Source: Nanobdellota archaeon (GTDB lineage: Archaea > Nanobdellota > Nanobdellia > SCGC-AAA011-G17 > JAFCDX01). Taken from it: DNA of 64,000 nucleotides. The stretch covers positions 58,584 to 122,583 of the forward strand of contig JBFMDT010000001.1 in the NCBI GenBank assembly GCA_040753775.1. The letters are read 5' to 3'. Of this stretch, positions 3,027-38,046 are shown piece by piece. Made by a program: the position numbers and the translations under genes. The number at the start of each line of letters is the position of its first letter. Position 1 is the first letter of the stretch. The notes beneath the pieces are model-generated. The model was given only the letters and a program-made list of their open reading frames with translations, was not told the origin of the DNA and did no database searches.

Positions 3027-5476
3027 CAAAAAAAATAATAGCAATAAGCGGAATGCATTGTGCTAGCTGTGCAAACACAATAGAAAAGGCTTTAAAAAAA
3101 CTTAAGGGAATAAAAGATGCTTCTGTCAATTATGCAACAGAAAAGGCAACAATAGAGCATGATGAAAAGTTTGAGATGTCTGAAGCTGCTAAGGCAATAA
3201 AAAGTCTTGGATATACACCATTGGAAGCAGAGGCTGTTGCTAAGGGAGAAATAAGGCTTAAAGTTATAGGAATGTCAAGCCCGCACTGCTCAAACATAGT
3301 CCAAAATGCATTGAACAAGCTTAAGGGAATAACAAATGCAGAGCTTAATTTTGCAAACGAGCTGGCAGTAATAAAATACAACCCAAATATTATAAATGTC
3401 AAAGGGATAAAGAATGAGCTCAAAAAGGCTGGCTACGAGGCTATTGAAGAAAGTTTTGTTGACAGGGAAAAAGAGGCAAGACAGAGGGACATCAGAACAT
3501 TAAGATTAGAATTCATAGTCAGTTTAATTCTTAGTATTCCTATAGTTCTCATAAGTATTCCTGATTGGTTTGGTATAGAAGTCCCATTTGTAAGTGTTCC
3601 ACATGCTTATATGAATTATGTACTTTTCATATTAACAACACCAATTCAATTGATAATAGCAAAAAGATTTTACAAGGGAATGTATTTTGCACTGAAAAAT
3701 AAATCAGCGAACATGGATACTTTAATAGCAGTGGGAACATCAGCTGCTTACTTATACAGTGTTGTTGTAACATTTTTTCCAAATATATTTCAGGACAATG
3801 TTTATTACGATGTTTCTGCCATTATCATTACATTCATAATCCTTGGAAAATATTTAGAGGCTGTCATGAAGGGAAAGACTTCAGAGGCTATTAAAAAATT
3901 GCTTGGATTAAGGCCAAAAACAGCAAGAGTTGTAAGAAATGGCAAGGAGATTGAAATAAGCATAGATGATGTAAGGGTGAATGACATTGTTGTTATAAAA
4001 CCAGGAGAAAAGATCCCTGTTGATGGAATTGTAATTGAGGGAAGCACTTCTGTTGATGAAAGCATGATTACTGGGGAGAGCATTCCTGTTGAGAAAAATA
4101 AGGGAGATGAGGTAATAGGAGCTACAATAAATAAAAATGGATTAATCAAATTTAAAGCAACTAAGGTTGGAAAGGACACTGTATTAGCACAGATTATTAA
4201 GCTTGTTGAGGAAGCACAGGGAAGCAAAGCACCAATACAAAGGCTGGCTGACAAGGTAAGCAGTTATTTTGTTCCTGTTGTCATAGTAATTGCTGTTTTA
4301 TCAGCTTTATTCTGGTATTTTATTGGAGCAAGCTTAACTACACTCAGCATGGCACCATTTGTATTTTCTTTAAGCATTTTTGTAGCTGTATTGATAATTG
4401 CATGCCCTTGCGCTCTTGGCTTAGCAACACCAACAGCTATAATGGTTGGAACAGGAAAGGGAGCTGAAAATGGAATCTTGATTAAGGGGGGTGAAGCATT
4501 AGAAACAGCGCATAAGTTAACAACAGTTATATTCGATAAAACAGGAACATTGACAAAAGGAAAGCCAGAGGTGACGGATATTGTTGCAGCAGAAAAATTT
4601 AATGAAAATGATGTTTTGAAATATGCTGCAATTGCTGAAAAGGGAAGCGAGCATCCATTAGCAGATGCCATTTTGAATAAGGTAAAGAAGATTGCAGGAT
4701 TTAAGATACCAGAAGCAAGTTCATTTAAGGCCCTGCCAGGATTGGGAGTTGAGGTAAAATACAAAGGAACAGAAATTTTATTGGGGAACAGAAAATTAAT
4801 GATTGATAAAAAAGTTGATATAAAAGATTTGGAAGACAATATTAGGAAATTAGAAGAGCAAGGAAAGACTGTAATTGTAGTTTCTTTTAGAAGAAAGGCT
4901 ATAGGAATAATTGCTGTTGCGGATACTTTAAAGGAGAATAGCAAAGAGGCTGTTGAAATTCTGCATAAAATGAAGAAAGAAGTAGTGATGATAACCGGTG
5001 ATAATGAAAGAACAGCAAGGGCTATTGCAAGCAAAATTGGAATTGATAGGGTGTTAGCTGATGTTTTGCCTGGAGAGAAAGCCCATGCTGTTAAGAAGCT
5101 GCAGGAAGAGGGAAAGATTGTTGCTTTTACAGGAGATGGGATCAATGATGCCCCGGCAATGGCACAGGCAGATGTAGGGATTGCTGTTGGCTCTGGAACT
5201 GATGTTGCTATTGAGACTGGCGATATTATATTAATTAAGGATGACTTGAGGGATGTTGTAAGGGCAATCAACCTGAGCAAATACACATTGAAAAAGATTA
5301 AACAAAATTTATTCTGGGCATTTTTTTACAATAGTGTTGGAATCCCTGTTGCAGCTGGTATATTGTACCCTCTTGGATTTTTGCTTAACCCAATAATAGC
5401 AGGCGCTGCAATGGCTTTTAGCTCTGTAAGCGTTGTAGGAAATTCCTTGCTGATGAGAAGGTATAAGGTAAAATGA
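3023..5476 (+). CDS. copA: Cu+-exporting P1B-type ATPase with two N-terminal HMA domains
   Basis: Two GMxCxxC metal-binding motifs, CPC transmembrane motif ([10 protein letters not shown]), DKTGTLT phosphorylation site, GDGINDAP hinge. Confidence 0.95.
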
Positions 5477-8896: not shown

Positions 8897-9277
8897 ATGA
8901 GAAAAGAAATTGAGGATTGGGTAAAGCAAGCACTTGCAGATTTAAGAAAAGCCGAAGTTCTAATCAATAGCAAAAATTTTGATGGGGCTGTATTTTTCTG
9001 TCAACAGGCAGTAGAAAAATCTCTGAAAGCTTTATACATGCTTAAATTAAAAGAAATTCCAAAAGGACACTCTATAATTTATTTTGCACAAAAGGTTAAT
9101 GTTCCAAAAGAAATGCTGTCAGGCATAAGGGACTTGAATCCAGAGTATTTGATTACAAGATATCCTGATATGGCTGCAGGCATTCCTGCAGAACTTTATG
9201 ATGCAGAGATTGCTAATAGACATAAAAAAACTGCAGAACAGGTGCTAAAATGGGTAGAACAAAAGATAAAAAAATAA
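8897..9277 (+). CDS. HEPN-domain protein (toxin component of a HEPN/MNT pair)
   Basis: HEPN-like helical protein (AVFFCQQAVEKSLKALY...RYPD); overlaps the downstream MNT gene by 28 nt. Confidence 0.8.
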   Translation: MRKEIEDWVKQALADLRKAEVLINSKNFDGAVFFCQQAVEKSLKALYMLKLKEIPKGHSIIYFAQKVNVPKEMLSGIRDLNPEYLITRYPDMAAGIPAELYDAEIANRHKKTAEQVLKWVEQKIKK

Positions 9278-9564
9278 AAGATTTTATCAATAAAATTAAA
9301 AAAAAATATAATGTACAAAATGCAATATTATTTGGAAGCAGGGCAAGAGGCGATTACTTAAAAAACAGCGATTACGACATTATTATTGTCTCTAAAGATT
9401 TTAAAGGCATTTTTTTTACACAGAGGATTGCTAAAATGTATGCCTTTTGGAAATATTACCCGCTTGAAATAGAGCCTTTGTGCTATACCCCAGAAGAGTT
9501 TAAGAAAAAAGCAAAAGAGCATGGGACTGTTAGAACTGCGATTAAAGAAGGGATTAAGTTATAA
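9250..9564 (+). CDS. minimal nucleotidyltransferase (MNT, antitoxin component)
   Basis: GS-x9-DxD nucleotidyltransferase motif (GSRARGDYLKNSDYDIIIV). Confidence 0.8.
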   Translation: MGRTKDKKIKDFINKIKKKYNVQNAILFGSRARGDYLKNSDYDIIIVSKDFKGIFFTQRIAKMYAFWKYYPLEIEPLCYTPEEFKKKAKEHGTVRTAIKEGIKL

Positions 9565-9629
9565 AAAGCAATAAGAAGAATCTATAGAAAATGAGGTCTC
9601 GAAATAGGCCTCGATTCTGAGAAGGTTTT

Positions 9630-9730
9630 GAATAAGGTAGGATTTTTCGGAAATGCAGAATTTTACTGGTATAAGGCTTGCTGTTGGGGTTCCACAGGAA
9701 ATGAGGTCTCGATTGTGGGAAAGGGTGTAG
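9630..9730. repeat. downstream copy of the direct repeat flanking the HEPN/MNT cassette
   Basis: See 8681-8796; also contains the aggtctcga/gggaaagg submotifs. Confidence 0.8.
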
Positions 9731-9983
9731 GTGGGGGAAGACAGGACTGAGTGGAAAGGTACAGTAAAGAAGGGTTCTATACAAAGGGCAATGAAGATGA
9801 TATTGGATTTGGAAAGGGGGACAGCTAACCATGCTTTCCGCTGTAATGCAGTACAACATGGAACGGAGGCTTGCTTAACTTCCAGGTTCGAAATGTTTCT
9901 GGGTGGTTCCAAGCCCCTCTGGCCGTCCTGACGTCCATACGCACTTCAGGGTTAATAAGCTTTATGGTTGTGTCAGTACTCCT

Positions 9984-10914
9984 GTGATGTCCTGTAATTA
10001 GTTCACACTTATATACTATTCTATATAGTCTTCTTGAGGTGATGTTTTATGTTAAACTTTAAGAAGAAGGTATGGATAGTAAAGCAGAAAGATAAAGGAA
10101 TATTAACAGATTCTGAGATTGCTTCTGCTCAGGATGTTACAAGAAGAGCTGTACAGAAGATATATTCTATTTATAGATTAAATGGATTACAATCCCTAAA
10201 TGATAAGCCTAAAGGAAGAAGGATAGATGATATACTTTATAATCTACAACAAGAGATACTTAAGCTAAGGAAAGAGCAATACGGAGTGCATAAGATAGAA
10301 GGGTTATTAAAAAATAAGGAATTAATTATTTCCCATAACAAGATACATAGATTCCTTAAGTCTAAAGGATTAGTTAAGTTAGAGCCTAAGAAAGGAAGAA
10401 GATACAAGTATATAGATTGGGAAAGAAAACACTCTAATAGCCTCTGGCAGACTGATTATTGCTGGATTCCAAGGTATCATAAATGGATGATAGCATACGT
10501 AGATGATCATTCAAGATTATGCACTGGAGCTAGTTATACTAACGAAGCTACTACAGAAACAGCTATTAACTTGTTAGATAAAGCAATAAACAAATGGAAT
10601 AAGCCAAGAGAAGTGTTAAGTGATAGAGGATCTCAATTCTATGCTGCAAAAGGAGAGAGTTCTTATTATAAGGAGTATCTAAATAGCTTAGGGATTAAGC
10701 TAATCTATTCTTCTATTAAGAAGCCTACTACTACAGGAAAGATAGAGAGATTCTGGCTAACCCATAATACAGAGAGGTGGAGATTTAGTTCTCTAGAGAA
10801 GTTCATTAATTATTACAACTATAAGAGACTCCATATGAGCTTGGATTATCTAACACCTTATGAGGTTTACATAAGAGATTTACCTAATGTGAGAACCTAT
10901 TAGGAGACATCACA
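9984..10914 (+). mobile_element. IS element with imperfect terminal inverted repeats (TGTGATGTCcTgTAAT / rc TGTGATGTCTCCTAAT)
   Basis: Inverted repeats found by eye at 9984-10000 and 10901-10914, bracketing a DDE transposase gene. Confidence 0.6.
10049..10903 (+). CDS. DDE transposase (N-terminal HTH plus rve/integrase-core domain)
   Basis: WQTDYCWIP...DDHSRL...E catalytic-core pattern; N-terminal helix-turn-helix. Confidence 0.8.
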   Translation: MLNFKKKVWIVKQKDKGILTDSEIASAQDVTRRAVQKIYSIYRLNGLQSLNDKPKGRRIDDILYNLQQEILKLRKEQYGVHKIEGLLKNKELIISHNKIHRFLKSKGLVKLEPKKGRRYKYIDWERKHSNSLWQTDYCWIPRYHKWMIAYVDDHSRLCTGASYTNEATTETAINLLDKAINKWNKPREVLSDRGSQFYAAKGESSYYKEYLNSLGIKLIYSSIKKPTTTGKIERFWLTHNTERWRFSSLEKFINYYNYKRLHMSLDYLTPYEVYIRDLPNVRTY

Positions 10915-26230: not shown

Positions 26231-26330
26231 GCGGATGTGCCGGAGTGGCCAAACGGGGCAGATACTTTGTAGCCCAACCTCAAGAGCTGTTGGCTTAGTG
26301 CCTACACAGGTTCGAATCCTGTCATCCGCA
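26231..26330 (+). tRNA. tRNA gene, ~100 nt; candidate Leu(CAA) with intron(s), precise structure unresolved
   Basis: 7-bp acceptor complementarity (GCGGATG/CATCCGC); T-arm ACAGG-TTCGAAT-CCTGT; internal CTCAAGA (canonical Leu-CAA anticodon loop) flanked by CCAAC/GTTGG but with 3 extra nt; D-arm GCCGGAGTGGCCAAAC is class-II-like. Confidence 0.55.
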
Positions 26331-32541: not shown

Positions 32542-33261
32542 CTATCTAAACCATCCCAAAATCCAGTTGAGTAATCTTCTAAAAAATCCTTCTTTAACTT
32601 CCTTTATTTCAGTAACCTCACTTGTATTAGTCGCTTGTTTTTGCACTTGTTCGCTTGGGTTTGGATTAAGCTTGCTCGCATCGCAATCTGAATCATCCGG
32701 GTAATAGCAATTGCTTGGGCAGCATTTGTCATTTACAACGCATTCTGTAATTGGTGTTTGTGTGCATTTCTTTGGCTTGCCCTCGCACTTATAGCTTATG
32801 CAAAAATCCCTGTTAGGAATATTCCAACATTCCTCACTGTCACTACATTCATTCAACATGCATTTACTATCAACACAGCTGTAATTTTTCTCGCAACCGC
32901 AATCTGCACAGCAATTTTCTTTTGTTTCAGTCCCATCGCAATTTCCATCTCCACATTCCCCAAAAGCGACGCCTTCAACAGTGGTCAACGCCTCTAACAA
33001 TAACTTTGTGCTCCTTGATTCAACTTCCCCTGTATAAAATATTTCAACAACACTGATCTTTACGCCACTAATATCCTTATTTCCATAAAGCGGAACAATG
33101 TCCTTTACTCCATCAACACTAACAACTACATTCATCTGCCCTATATTAACAACAATAACTTTATGGCCAGAAACAGTTGTTGAGCTGCCTTGGTTATAAG
33201 TCTCTTGTGCAAATACAGCTATAGAAAGTAGGATAATAAAGAATACATAGAATTTTTTCAT
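32542..33261 (-). CDS. Cys-rich secreted protein, hypothetical
   Basis: Probable start at MKKFYVFF (the track ORF extends to 33333 and overlaps the GT gene); signal peptide; more than 25 Cys in CxxC/CC patterns. Confidence 0.4.
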   Translation of the reverse strand: MKKFYVFFIILLSIAVFAQETYNQGSSTTVSGHKVIVVNIGQMNVVVSVDGVKDIVPLYGNKDISGVKISVVEIFYTGEVESRSTKLLLEALTTVEGVAFGECGDGNCDGTETKENCCADCGCEKNYSCVDSKCMLNECSDSEECWNIPNRDFCISYKCEGKPKKCTQTPITECVVNDKCCPSNCYYPDDSDCDASKLNPNPSEQVQKQATNTSEVTEIKEVKEGFFRRLLNWILGWFR

Positions 33262-33281
33262 AAGATATAAAGTCCTTATTT

Positions 33282-34373
33282 TTATATAAATCTTTTGAAT
33301 TCCTTCATTAGGCCTTTTGCAGTGTAGCCCCAATTTAATTTAGCCACGGACCTTCTTGCATTCTTTCCAAGCTTTGCCCTAAGTTTCTTATTTTTTATTA
33401 GTTTGATTAAAATCTTAGCTAAATAACTGGAACTTTTTTTTGGAATAAAATACCCATTGAACCCATCTTTTATGTAATGCATCATATAGCCAACCTTAGT
33501 GCACAATATTGGCAAGCCGCACCTCATTGCCTCAAGAGTTGCCAAGCTGCTTGTCTCAGTCAGGCTAGGCATAACAAATATATCCATTGCCTGCAAATAT
33601 TTAACAATGTCTTTTGCATTTTTAACTAATTTTATTCTTTTGTTCTTGATAAATAATTTTCTGTAAGGTCCATCCCCAACAATCAACAAGAATTTTTTTT
33701 CGTATTTTAATTTATTGAACGCCTTTAGCAGAGTCTCTAAGTTTTTTTCTCTGCTTAATCTTCCGCAGTATCCTATAACTATCTTATCATCTAAATTAAA
33801 TTTCTTTTTTGTATTTCCTGGGATAAACTCTTTTGATAAGCCAAGCTTAACTACTTTTGTCTTTGCTTTTATTTTGTTTCTTTTTAGTTTTTGCGCAACA
33901 TCATCTGAAGCAACCAATATTAAGCTACATTTGTTATAAATAAGCCTAGCAAGTTTTTTTGTTGTCGTTTTTATCCTCTTTTTGAATAAACTTGGTATGT
34001 AAACAGCCTCTGGAAAGAGCTCCCACTCTATTGAATGTGCATAAGAAATAACTGGCTTTTTTATTTTATTTGCATATAAAACTGTAAGAACACCAATTGG
34101 CCCAGGGGTCTGATTGAATATCAAATCTGTATCTTCGACAAATTTTTTAATCAGGCCTAAGTTAGGTTTAGCTGGCCTATAACCACTAATCCTAAACCTT
34201 GCTAAAGAAAATTTTATTAGTTTTATTCCTTTGTATTTAACTCCGCCATAATTTGGTGCGATAACAGTAATTTTGTAATATTTTCTCAGCCTCGGTATAA
34301 CCTCATCAAGAAACCTGGCTACCCCATCCCACCTAGGCAAAAATGAATCCGTTGTTATAAGAAGTTTTTTCAT
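33282..34373 (-). CDS. glycosyltransferase family 4 (GT-B, group 1)
   Basis: C-terminal GT1/GT4 motif region (ETSSLATLEAMRCGLPIL). Confidence 0.8.
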   Translation of the reverse strand: MKKLLITTDSFLPRWDGVARFLDEVIPRLRKYYKITVIAPNYGGVKYKGIKLIKFSLARFRISGYRPAKPNLGLIKKFVEDTDLIFNQTPGPIGVLTVLYANKIKKPVISYAHSIEWELFPEAVYIPSLFKKRIKTTTKKLARLIYNKCSLILVASDDVAQKLKRNKIKAKTKVVKLGLSKEFIPGNTKKKFNLDDKIVIGYCGRLSREKNLETLLKAFNKLKYEKKFLLIVGDGPYRKLFIKNKRIKLVKNAKDIVKYLQAMDIFVMPSLTETSSLATLEAMRCGLPILCTKVGYMMHYIKDGFNGYFIPKKSSSYLAKILIKLIKNKKLRAKLGKNARRSVAKLNWGYTAKGLMKEFKRFI

Positions 34374-34374
34374 T

Positions 34375-35019
34375 TTAGTTCAGCTTGTAAAATCTCTCGG
34401 CATATTTGCAGTCTAAATGATCTCCATGCAGTTTTGCTCTTGTATAAATGCTTGGCATAAGCTGTAGTATGACATGCCTCTGGCTTTTAAATTCCTTCAA
34501 TGCCTTTATCTTAAGTTCAAAAGTATCGCTAACATCCACATACAACTTGGGGTTTTCAGATTCCTTAAGGTTTGTTATGTTCCACACATCAAACCCGTAA
34601 ATGTAAGTATCAAATTTCATCTCATTAATGCAGGAAATAACAGCTTCATTAACAGCAAGGTGATCTGGAAGTTTATCGCTTGGGCTATGTGTAAATATCT
34701 TTATTGGCCTGTATTTCCTAATTAATTTTTTGATATCATCTTTCACTTTCTCTACATTTTGCTTTATCTTTGAATCAGGTAAACCAAAAAAAATAATGTC
34801 TTTATAACCTAAGATTTTTGCTGCACTCTTTATCTCACTTACTCTTTTTTTAACTATGATCTCTTTTTTCAAATGGCTAATTTCACCATAAGAAAATATA
34901 ACTTCAATTATCCTTTTCTTTTCTTTTACATATTTTGCTAAAGTTGAACCTATCCCAATTATTGAGTCATCTGGATGAGCAACGAAGCATAAAATATTTT
35001 CTTTTTTCATCTTAATCAA
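34375..35019 (-). CDS. PIG-L/LmbE-family N-acetylglucosaminyl deacetylase
   Basis: AHPDDS motif near the N-terminus (CFVAHPDDSIIGIG). Confidence 0.8.
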   Translation of the reverse strand: MIKMKKENILCFVAHPDDSIIGIGSTLAKYVKEKKRIIEVIFSYGEISHLKKEIIVKKRVSEIKSAAKILGYKDIIFFGLPDSKIKQNVEKVKDDIKKLIRKYRPIKIFTHSPSDKLPDHLAVNEAVISCINEMKFDTYIYGFDVWNITNLKESENPKLYVDVSDTFELKIKALKEFKSQRHVILQLMPSIYTRAKLHGDHLDCKYAERFYKLN

Positions 35020-35031
35020 AGTGCGTCAGCT

Positions 35032-35118
35032 GGGATTTGAACCCAGATCCTCGCCTTGGAAGGGCGAGATATTGGCCCATTTCTGACTAGCCATTATACT
35101 ACTGACGCATAATCAAGA
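35032..35118 (-). tRNA. tRNA-Gly(TCC) with a ~14-nt insertion (probable intron) in the D-loop
   Basis: On the minus strand: acceptor GCGTCAG/CTGACGC, anticodon arm TCGCC-CTTCCAA-GGCGA, T-arm CTGGG-TTCAAAT-CCCAG all contiguous; the D-region (GTAT...23 nt...ATAT) is about 14 nt too long. Confidence 0.7.
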
Positions 35119-35149
35119 AAAAATTTGGTTGCTTATAAATATTCTCTTT

Positions 35150-35371
35150 TTATTCCTCAGCACACCCATTGCTAAAGCATCCGCCTGCGCATATTTTTAT
35201 ATCAATAGTATCGCAATTTCCATACTGGTAAACAAGCTTGAAATCATCTACGCACCTGTAGCCCATGTCGCATCTCTTTGTATTAAAAGTAAAATAGCCT
35301 GTTGGTGTAAATAAATTGATAAAAATAACTAATAAGATTATTCCAATTACAACATAAAATAATCTGTTCAT
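35150..35371 (-). CDS. small secreted Cys-rich protein
   Basis: Signal peptide; 7 Cys residues. Confidence 0.3.
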   Translation of the reverse strand: MNRLFYVVIGIILLVIFINLFTPTGYFTFNTKRCDMGYRCVDDFKLVYQYGNCDTIDIKICAGGCFSNGCAEE

Positions 35372-38046
35372 TTTACCTTCCTAAAAGCATAGTCAATCTG
35401 CTCACTGCTCCACCCTTTCTTAAGCAATGTTTCTTTTATCTGTTTTTCATTAATTCCCTGGCTTAAGGTCTGCTCGATATATTTCTCTAAATTCTCTAAA
35501 TCCTGCTGTGATGTAAAGATTCTTCTCTTAAAAAGCTTTACGGAAATCCAATTAGTTAAGTCTTTAAAGTTTCCTGGCCCTTTATAGAAATTTATGTAAT
35601 AAATACAAAGGGCAAGTATTAAGAATAGTATTGCATATGGAATTATTGGTACCTTTTTCTTGCAGTCCTCTGGGCAACTTATCTCATCCTCAAGCGGCTC
35701 TTCGCATTTCTTATTCCCGCAAACTCCAACTTCAAATTCCTCAACACCAATGTCTTTTGCTTCTGCAAGAACAATAGTTTTCGTATTAATCACACTGTCC
35801 AAGGCAGCACCACGTACTATGTATGCGATGTCTAAGCTCCCCGAAATAGGCCATTTTATTATAGGATCAGCCTCAACTATTTCATAACCCTGTGTAATAA
35901 TATCATCTCCGCTTATGCTTCCAGCAACCTCTTTTGGTATAACTTCTACAACAAACATATTTTTTGGGTTGCTTAGTGTAATTGATTTTTTGACAACTAC
36001 AAACCCATCATCCCTTCCAGATATATACTTTGCATTTACAGAATAGCCATAACCCTGCACATTTACATCTTCCTGAAATGCAAACAAGGCCTTTTTGTAG
36101 TTTATATCAGTTGTTATTGCATCAGGAATGTCATCAAAATAATTAACACCTGAAACAAAAGTCAAACCTTCCACGCTTAAGCCCTTTGGCAGTGTAGCCC
36201 TTAACGCAAGCAAACTGCTCTGTATATTTCCAAAAGTCATTTCCTTCTCTGTATCGGTTAATGAAAGAGCTGAATTATAATCAAGTTCATACTGCGTTAG
36301 TAAAGCACTGGCATTTTCAATCTTGGTATTTATTTCAAGAATATTAACTATATCATTAACAACCTGCGAAGCATTTCCAAGCTGGCCATTAAATATTTTA
36401 ATACTTTCTTTTGTGTCATTAAGAAGGTATTCTACGTTCTTCTGCGCAGAATCCACATGTACAGTTGCATATGCCATGCTGCTTAATTCATTTACATCAA
36501 CAACAGCCACGCTTACATCATAATCCCCAATTGTATTGTAGGTGTATGTTACATTAGGCTCAAATGTCGTAACAACTTGGCCCTCCCCAAAATACCAATC
36601 ATACCTTGCTATAGCACTCTTGTTGTTTTTCACCTGAACTCCAAAAGGTGTTTCTTGGTATAGCCCTGCAAATTGTGGTGCTATTATCTTAACATCAGCA
36701 GCCTTAACAACATTTATGTCTTTTTCATCAGAAGCATAAACCTTTCCATTATACTCCAAACTAGCCTTTAGCTTGTAAGTTCCTTCAGAAGATGGTGCAG
36801 CAATTCCTTCAACATTACCAAGCTCTAATATAAGTTCTCCATTGCTTATTGTATCAGGCATGTATTCTATACTATAGAGCTTGCCATCAACAGCCCCTGC
36901 CTTAACAGATACCATCTTAAAATTGATTTTTCCCTTTCCTTCTGTGCTTATCTCTATAGGATACAAACAATACTTAACAGAAGCTTTTACTAAATTAATA
37001 GGGCAGCTTGCTCCAGAAAGCTCAGTGCTAAAGTCTATGCTTTCTGTTGTGCTCATATTTGTTTGGAATTTATTCCTTGCAATTTTAATAAAGTAGTCAT
37101 AACCCTCAAAGCCAGCAATGCTACAGTCATTACTTTCACAGTATAAACCATTGGACACTGCATTTGGAGCCTCAACACCTATCTTATAATATGTATTGGC
37201 TGAAGATCCGCTATCAGCATATACACAGACATAATAATTATCCGGCTTGATGTCTATAGTGCAGGACTTCCATCCAAAATTGCCATCAGCAGTTAATTGG
37301 CATCTTACTTCATTATTATCAACCTTAACAATTTCCTTGTCCTTGTCCCTCAAGCTGGCATAAAGGTTTGCCCCATCTGCAGACTTCTTAACATAAGCAT
37401 CAAGCCTGTACCTTCCAGAAGCAGGAAAATCAATCTGCTCGCAGTACTCTGTATTTCTTGCGCCATTGACATTAAATTCATCATCAACGTTGTAATCAAA
37501 AAGATACTGTGCTTGAACATCCTCAAACTGTCCTGTTATCAAAGGCCCAACATAACCCCATTTAGCATCCTTTATCTTAACTCCAGGAAGCATAGGATAA
37601 ATATTGTCAACCTTATTTCCTGTTATGCTGAACTTTGCTTCGCTTATGTCTGGGCTTTGTATGCTAAAACCAAGAGCATAGGAATTACTAACACCTTTAC
37701 TGTTAAATGTAAGGGCTGCTTCAGAAACAGGGCTGGTGCTTTTCAATACATAGGAAGCAGGGACAATTTCACAACCCGAGCATATGTCCCTTAGTTTGCT
37801 GCTGTACTTTTTATCATTAATGGCTATTATCAGCTCTGCATCAGCAGGAATATCTGTGTAGCTCATGTTTACAAGCCCGCTTAATATTTGCCCAGGGCTG
37901 TATTTGCTTGTGCTTAAATCTAGCTTAGCAGTTGAAGAAGTGACGTATCCAGTATACTTAGGCTCAAATAATACAAGCGTTAATACAAGAACAAGAACAA
38001 TAACAATAAAAGTTAAGAGTAAATAATTTTTCTTCAGGGTTACCAC
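35368..38046 (-). CDS. large type-I membrane surface protein (about 890 aa) with ~80-aa cytoplasmic tail
   Basis: Signal peptide, long beta-rich ectodomain with PKD-like segments, single C-terminal TM, then a charged tail. Confidence 0.45.
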   Translation of the reverse strand: MVTLKKNYLLLTFIVIVLVLVLTLVLFEPKYTGYVTSSTAKLDLSTSKYSPGQILSGLVNMSYTDIPADAELIIAINDKKYSSKLRDICSGCEIVPASYVLKSTSPVSEAALTFNSKGVSNSYALGFSIQSPDISEAKFSITGNKVDNIYPMLPGVKIKDAKWGYVGPLITGQFEDVQAQYLFDYNVDDEFNVNGARNTEYCEQIDFPASGRYRLDAYVKKSADGANLYASLRDKDKEIVKVDNNEVRCQLTADGNFGWKSCTIDIKPDNYYVCVYADSGSSANTYYKIGVEAPNAVSNGLYCESNDCSIAGFEGYDYFIKIARNKFQTNMSTTESIDFSTELSGASCPINLVKASVKYCLYPIEISTEGKGKINFKMVSVKAGAVDGKLYSIEYMPDTISNGELILELGNVEGIAAPSSEGTYKLKASLEYNGKVYASDEKDINVVKAADVKIIAPQFAGLYQETPFGVQVKNNKSAIARYDWYFGEGQVVTTFEPNVTYTYNTIGDYDVSVAVVDVNELSSMAYATVHVDSAQKNVEYLLNDTKESIKIFNGQLGNASQVVNDIVNILEINTKIENASALLTQYELDYNSALSLTDTEKEMTFGNIQSSLLALRATLPKGLSVEGLTFVSGVNYFDDIPDAITTDINYKKALFAFQEDVNVQGYGYSVNAKYISGRDDGFVVVKKSITLSNPKNMFVVEVIPKEVAGSISGDDIITQGYEIVEADPIIKWPISGSLDIAYIVRGAALDSVINTKTIVLAEAKDIGVEEFEVGVCGNKKCEEPLEDEISCPEDCKKKVPIIPYAILFLILALCIYYINFYKGPGNFKDLTNWISVKLFKRRIFTSQQDLENLEKYIEQTLSQGINEKQIKETLLKKGWSSEQIDYAFRKVK

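Follow-up and report, generated by a model that had tools for sequence, protein, structure and literature searches.

The window analyzed in this study is a 64,000-nt stretch of genomic DNA with a GC content of ~35%. An Rfam search (RF00005) identified an 87-nt tRNA-Gly(UCC) gene on its minus strand at 35022..35108, with a score of 57.1 bits (E 1.1e-09) compared to a gathering score of 29. An earlier note on this DNA had correctly called a tRNA-Gly(TCC) on the minus strand, although the coordinates that it gave (35032-35118) were offset by +10 nt. Direct reading of the minus strand revealed an acceptor stem (GCGUCAG/CUGACGC), a 7-nt anticodon loop (CUUCCAA) and a T-arm (CUGGG-UUCAAAU-CCCAG), each as the note had described. 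The discriminator base is A and CCA is not encoded. The anticodon UCC, at 35058..35060, was assigned by Rfam and by ARAGORN on the spliced form. D-loops are usually 7-11 nt long. Here, 23 nt (AATGGCTAGTCAGAAATGGGCCA) separate GTAT from ATAT, which confirmed the oversized D region that had been reported, and RF00005 modelled an insertion of 18 nt in the D-loop. A cloverleaf score over the threshold, UCC in a 7-nt loop and an archaeal gene context all identify the locus as a tRNA gene. A chance match can be dismissed, since the score greatly exceeds the gathering threshold and inserts occur at the same site in orthologues from six other contigs. ARAGORN reported no tRNA across the whole window when given the unspliced sequence. 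Since this program cannot handle D-arm introns, its blank result is no evidence against the tRNA; once the 15-nt insert was taken out, it called tRNA-Gly(tcc) on the 72-nt form.

Direct reading also revealed TTTATAA, an archaeal TATA-box-like element, on the minus strand at 35133..35139, centred ~28 nt upstream of tRNA position 1. As (t)ttataa(a/g)-like elements were found at equal distance upstream in the tRNA-Gly orthologues, we refer to this sequence as the putative promoter of tRNA-Gly(UCC). A Pfam scan of the ORFs revealed genes for aTrm56, PTH2 and a methyltransferase resembling GCD14/TrmI in the window, and the PIG-L protein next to the tRNA has a 100% identical counterpart at NCBI, in 'MAG: Nanoarchaeota archaeon'. 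The aTrm56 protein matched no contig when looked up by exact sequence. Judging from aTrm56, PTH2 and the TATA-like element at ~-28, the genome is archaeal. The tRNA and the PIG-L deacetylase ORF share a strand, and the ORF begins only 3-12 nt past the tRNA 3′ end, both in the window (35010..35022) and in most orthologues (loci L028-L032 and L035). This gap leaves no space for a separate PIG-L promoter, suggesting that tRNA-Gly and PIG-L may be made as a tRNA-mRNA co-transcript that would be released by 3′ processing. The tRNA-PIG-L spacers of L033 and L036 are longer, and that of L033 has its own TATA-like box. Elsewhere in the window, Rfam identified a stand-alone 5S rRNA gene at 9816..9930 on the minus strand (55.7 bits), with no 16S or 23S linkage within the window. 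The 5S gene adjoins a HEPN/nucleotidyltransferase pair and a gene for an rve-family integrase (transposase-like), the neighbours lying at 8897..9564 and 10049..10903. A probably spurious ORF at 9554..9859 on the minus strand overlaps the 5S gene. Rfam detected no RNA in the window beyond tRNA-Gly and 5S rRNA, even at E<=1.

We searched the precursor for bulge-helix-bulge (BHB) motifs of the 3-4-3 type, assigning each cut to the position between the second and third bulge nucleotides. In linear numbering, in which nucleotide 1 is the G at 35108, the central helix H consists of G17-C35, G18-C34, C19-G33 and U20.G32. The 5′ bulge is A21 G22 | U23 and the 3′ bulge is A36 A37 | U38. The inner hairpin h′ has two pairs, C24-G31 and A25-U30, closing a GAAA loop, and the outer helix h has two A-U pairs, U16-A39 and A15-U40. 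This was the only 3-4-3 BHB in the D region in which both flanking helices contained at least 2 bp, and it defines an intron of linear nucleotides 23-37. On the minus strand of the window, the 5′ strand of H is exon GGCU at 35089..35092 (G18 G19 C20 U20a in tRNA numbering), which pairs with intron GGCC at 35074..35077, as seen in the BHB scan, the orthologue comparison and the pair probabilities. The 5′ bulge (A G|U) occupies 35086..35088, with the predicted cut after tRNA position G22, between 35087 and 35086, and the 3′ bulge (A A|U) occupies 35071..35073, with the predicted cut between 35072 and 35071. The inner hairpin found in the scan lies at 35078..35085.

The predicted 15-nt intron, UCAGAAAUGGGCCAA, thus corresponds to 35072..35086 and lies between tRNA positions 22 and 23, a placement given by the BHB scan, the orthologue junctions and the gap in a MAFFT alignment. 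The 5′ exon at 35087..35108 (positions 1-22) contains the acceptor 5′ strand, U8 A9, the D-stem strand GUAU, the D-loop AAUGGCUA and G22; its end was located by the BHB scan and by a MAFFT gap after ...TAG in intron-less orthologues. The 3′ exon at 35022..35071 (positions 23-73) contains the D-stem UAU, C26, the anticodon arm, the variable loop, the T-arm, the acceptor 3′ strand and A73, as delimited by Rfam, ARAGORN and the MAFFT alignment. The earlier note had proposed a short non-canonical D-arm intron with a BHB fold, and our analysis supports such an intron. Its predicted length is 15 nt rather than ~14 nt, according to the BHB scan and the orthologue junctions, and the BHB scan and MAFFT gap place it in the 3′ strand of the D-stem rather than within the D-loop as had been suggested.

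The motif contains a 4-bp helix and two 3-nt bulges on opposite strands, each 3′ of a helix strand, and excision at these bulges restores a canonical cloverleaf of 72 nt. Random shuffles of the 15-nt intron gave a BHB at the same junction in 6 of 5000 trials. As an internal control, the same scan located the second intron of the L033 orthologue at its canonical site, 37/38. In canonical introns the first two anticodon bases lie within the 4-bp helix (PMC4090602), which is consistent with a cut after the second bulge nucleotide. A 17-nt BHB option (H UGGC/GCCA, intron 22-38 in linear numbering) was rejected as its excision destroys the D-stem. A 15-nt excision one nucleotide earlier (A21|G22 ... 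A36|A37, stem strand AUAU) was also rejected: G22 is invariant among orthologues, and the base that would replace it varies, being C in L024. Group I and group II introns have a ribozyme core of hundreds of nucleotides; a self-splicing intron of either group was dismissed for an insert of merely 15 nt, and Rfam gave no group I or group II intron match in the window, even at E<=1.

Folding predictions showed that the elements of the motif differ in stability. The central helix was robust (pair probabilities of 0.75-0.996). The pair probability of the inner hairpin was only ~0.3 and that of the outer helix was 0.0, and addition of the outer helix cost 3.9 kcal/mol. The BHB conformer with the outer helix was 5 kcal/mol above the minimum free energy (MFE) structure, and the conformer that lacks it was 1.1 kcal/mol above. 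Two observations count against a spliced BHB intron, namely an outer helix of just two A-U pairs and a G.A mismatch in the central helix of the L002 orthologue. The pairing is strict on paper; in the energy model it is closer to the relaxed form that lacks a stable outer helix. Because the outer helix is weak, the motif may need a broad-specificity splicing endonuclease (EndA). Relaxed BHB forms missing a helix or bulge are known substrates of broad-specificity EndAs (PMC3239211).

Relatives of this gene were collected in several ways. A pattern scan of species-representative genomes for the exact anticodon arm yielded one locus, L001, from the MAG Nanoarchaeota archaeon H51-bin092_1. A metagenome scan returned 26 matches, mostly bacterial-type intron-less tRNA-Gly genes that were uninformative, with further orthologues among the rest. 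Syntenic loci were reached through homologues of the downstream PIG-L protein. We found an intron of 14-20 nt at the identical site in six other contigs, representing five further distinct sequences: 20 nt in L001 (= L005) and L015, 17 nt in L002, 18 nt in L007, 14 nt in L024 and 16 nt in L033. The junction ...AAUGGCYAG | intron | UAU or AAU... is common to all five. A full 3-4-3 BHB is formed by four of these five introns; in L002 the central helix contains one G.A mismatch. A GGCY/GGYY central helix and bulges of the types AG|N and AN|N are kept in all of the 22/23 introns, and one-sided changes in helix H among orthologues still pair. The inner hairpins vary from 2 to 5 bp and their sequences are unrelated, with pairing retained. 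Thus, the motif is conserved among six distinct introns while the interior varies.

Covariation was assessed in an alignment of six sequences (A1); a second alignment (A2) was left out as MAFFT had shifted the window intron relative to the others. In A1, 98.7% of cells were paired, and both pairs of the inner hairpin changed on both sides (CG/UA and CG/AU/UA). The observed covariation score was reached in none of 500 shuffles, and sliding the pairing partners lowered the paired share to ~39%.

The order tRNA-Gly(UCC), PIG-L, GT4 glycosyltransferase is shared by related Nanoarchaeota contigs, and at this syntenic locus L029, L030/L031, L032, L035 and L036 carry an intron-less tRNA-Gly(UCC). Their D-arms (GUAU/GUAC-ARUGGYUA-GUAU) nearly match the predicted spliced D-arm, GUAU-AAUGGCUA-GUAU. 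When aligned by MAFFT with no structural guidance, the intron-less genes showed a gap exactly between ...TAG and TAT..., at the predicted junction, so that alignment with related archaeal tRNA-Gly genes, which the earlier note had recommended for placing the boundaries, did place them between positions 22 and 23. L036 has another tRNA match of 91 nt further downstream, past the GT4 gene, at 3246..3336 on the minus strand (Rfam 57.9 bits), the length of which suggests an intron there too. Canonical 37/38 introns were found in other orthologues, as the sole intron in L028 (35 nt) and L034 (22 nt) and alongside the 22/23 intron in L033 (18 nt). The presence of no intron, a 37/38 intron, a 22/23 intron or both among orthologues indicates a quick turnover of intron content at one locus.

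These comparisons bear on a different set of boundaries, those of a ~14-nt intron lying in the D-loop and bordered by an AATGG repeat, as the earlier note had proposed. Removal of this segment would leave the D-loop AAUGGGCCA and the stem strand AUAU, giving a mature ...AAUGGCUAGUAUC... instead of the ...AAUGGGCCAAUAUC... predicted by 22/23 splicing, with a possible pairing between AGUCAG in the insert and the acceptor 3′ strand. ARAGORN also accepted that product as tRNA-Gly, and it would have a Watson-Crick U13-A22 pair. However, the BHB scan gave no BHB with those boundaries, so the suggested fold around the AATGG duplication was not found, and the intron-less orthologues show G22, with a D-loop of 8 nt (AAUGGYUA) followed by GUAU rather than AAUGGGCCA and AUAU. 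We found that G22 is invariant across all 12 aligned sequences, whereas cuts one nucleotide earlier would install A at position 22 in most introns and C in L024. The invariant G22 and the variable base left by a shifted cut fix the boundaries at 22/23 and argue decisively against those at the AATGG repeat, in which we place next to no credence. The repeat itself is present in the sequence; its second copy is missing from the orthologous introns and is incidental, because the second AUGG exists by virtue of the need of the intron to pair with exon GGCU in helix GGCU/GGCC and not through duplication. Similarly, AGTCAG does occur in the insert and is complementary to CTGAC, but the alternative pre-tRNA fold read from this complementarity was absent from the predicted folds and from the orthologues.

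We also considered whether the 15 nt might be retained in a mature tRNA with an extended helical D-arm, or whether the gene might be a decaying pseudogene with a small insertion, the work being done by an intact tRNA-Gly(UCC) elsewhere. Retention would agree with the MFE fold, in which the D-arm is lengthened into a 5-bp helix, and with the Rfam tRNA model, which tolerated the insert at 57.1 bits. The latter result came from acceptance of the full 87 nt through an insert state, so the covariance-model check that had been put forward earlier is uninformative on splicing. G18 and G19 normally contact the T-loop in tRNA. In the retained form, these residues would be sequestered by the insert. Moreover, what is conserved among the orthologues is the 3-4-3 geometry with its bulge positions and not the hairpin length (2 to 5 bp), the pattern of an endonuclease substrate rather than of a structural expansion, and orthologues at this locus function although they lack the insert, their sequences agreeing with the spliced product predicted here. 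For these reasons, retention is very unlikely. Decay of the gene could account for the failure of ARAGORN to recognise it, and an inspection that covered 64 kb of genome leaves room for an intact copy elsewhere. Against this explanation, all stems of tRNA-Gly(UCC) are intact, compensatory changes have occurred in the acceptor and T-stems among orthologues (G3-C70/A3-U70 and C5-G68/U5-A68), the promoter-like element is conserved, and a tRNA-Gly(UCC) is present at the same locus in 12 related contigs. With intact stems showing compensatory changes at a conserved locus, a pseudogene is scarcely believable.

We conclude that tRNA-Gly(UCC) is very probably a functional DPANN gene with a BHB-dependent, protein-spliced 15-nt intron between positions 22 and 23. 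The motif, its covariation-backed conservation and a spliced product that matches the intron-less orthologues support this conclusion. From the sequence we further infer how the intron would be cleaved and the exons ligated, and by which enzymes. In the precursor, exon residues G18 G19 C20 U20a would pair with intron GGCC to form the 4-bp helix, flanked by the bulges AG|U and AA|U; a 2-bp hairpin closing a GAAA loop would lie on its inner side, and an A-U helix of 2 bp could form on its outer side. The archaeal splicing endonuclease EndA would then sever each bulge behind its second nucleotide, and the exons would be sealed by a ligase of the RtcB type at the predicted junction ...AAUGGCUAG|UAUCUCG.... 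The expected product is a 72-nt tRNA with the D-stem GUAU/GUAU (G10.U25, U11-A24, A12-U23 and U13.G22) and the 8-nt D-loop, to which CCA would be added post-transcriptionally. The Pfam scan found neither EndA nor RtcB among the 30 window ORFs that it covered.

The only other tRNA gene of the window is also disrupted. This 100-nt tRNA-Leu(CAA) gene, at 26231..26330 on the plus strand, contains a 16-nt BHB intron at 26262..26277, in the anticodon stem at position 30/31. Its helix H is GGGC/GCCC, its bulges are AG|A and AA|C, and its 3-bp inner hairpin has a UUU loop; the bulges are of the same sequence types as those of tRNA-Gly(UCC). A TATA-like ctttaaata is located at ~-30. The gene was missed by ARAGORN, and by Rfam even at E<=1. 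With the intron removed, ARAGORN called tRNA-Leu(caa) with a long variable arm.

The foremost value of these results is for annotation, since ARAGORN found neither of the two tRNA genes in the 64-kb window and Rfam found one of them. Intron-bearing orthologues of tRNA-Gly(UCC) fared no better with ARAGORN, which typed them as tRNA-Ser(tga) in L001 (1009-1102) and L015 (1424-1517) and as tRNA-Pro(ggg) in L007 (914-1003), left the type undetermined in L024 (1259-1344) and missed the gene of L002 entirely. In the mis-typed cases the program appears to take the intron hairpin for the anticodon arm. Default pipelines would therefore score DPANN/Nanoarchaeota MAGs as having no tRNA-Gly(UCC), or as having odd extra tRNAs. 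Predicted tRNA sets of DPANN genomes are known to be incomplete (PMC5829648), and missed tRNA-Gly(UCC) genes would add to these gaps. tRNAscan-SE 2.0 in archaeal mode looks for non-canonical introns by default, using BHB models trained on other phyla (PMC8450103). In addition, tRNA intron gain and loss can be studied in a compact natural series of orthologous loci that lack introns, carry a canonical or a D-arm intron, or combine the two.

Similarity around the locus is discordant. The flanks of the tRNA (window 32900..36200) are colinear with L028 (76% DNA identity over 2.8 kb) and L029 (67%), and the window PIG-L protein is 83% identical to that of L028 and 74% identical to that of L029. The mature tRNA of the window is only 74-81% identical to the tRNAs of the relatives with colinear flanks, the values for L028 and L029 being 74-78%. 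It shares 89-93% identity with the tRNAs of a distant, intron-bearing group (L001, L002, L007, L015 and L024). In that group only the tRNA aligns and the flanks do not, and the PIG-L proteins of the contigs that include the gene (L001, L002 and L015) are ~40% identical.

One possible cause is in-situ replacement of the resident gene by a transferable allele comprising the entire tRNA body and its 22/23 intron. We regard such a replacement as doubtful; the similarity evidence spans 72 nt and is suggestive only. Very uneven tRNA evolution is a possible alternative cause of the discordance. If true, replacement would illustrate how tRNA introns can spread through exchange of entire tRNA genes.

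The predicted intron of tRNA-Gly(UCC) is a further case of a known type and involves no new mechanism, position 22/23 having already been published. Non-canonical BHB introns have been listed at positions 20/21, 22/23, 25/26, 29/30, 30/31 and others (PMC4090602). They come mainly from Crenarchaeota/Thermoproteales, Thaumarchaeota, Nanoarchaeum and ARMAN-2, and are 11-129 nt long (PMC4090602). The tRNA-Gly(UCC) intron resembles them in its length of 15 nt, its 4-bp helix with two 3-nt junction bulges, its position and its variable interior. It differs from them in its host, which is a groundwater-type 'Nanoarchaeota' (DPANN) MAG rich in AT (~35% GC) and not a thermophilic crenarchaeon; in a marginal outer helix, whose two A-U pairs were not predicted by thermodynamic folding; and in its occurrence, as orthologues at a single syntenic locus either carry or lack the homologous intron, which in some cases accompanies a canonical one.

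ARMAN-2 and other DPANN have disrupted tRNA genes and an epsilon2-type EndA or an alpha4-type EndA with an L3 loop (PMC3239211, PMC5829648). The gene studied here shares with them a DPANN lineage, an intron outside the anticodon loop and a failure of default tRNA finders to detect it. In contrast to the named examples considered from those papers, which lie at 59/60 and 53/54 in the T-arm, the tRNA-Gly(UCC) intron lies in the D-arm. The canonical 37/38 intron, found in tRNA-Gly(UCC) of L028, L034 and L033, has the same recognition motif and would be processed by the same predicted enzymes. Unlike the canonical intron, that of the window is located in the 3′ strand of the D-stem, and its helix draws on G18 G19 C20 U20a instead of anticodon-loop bases.
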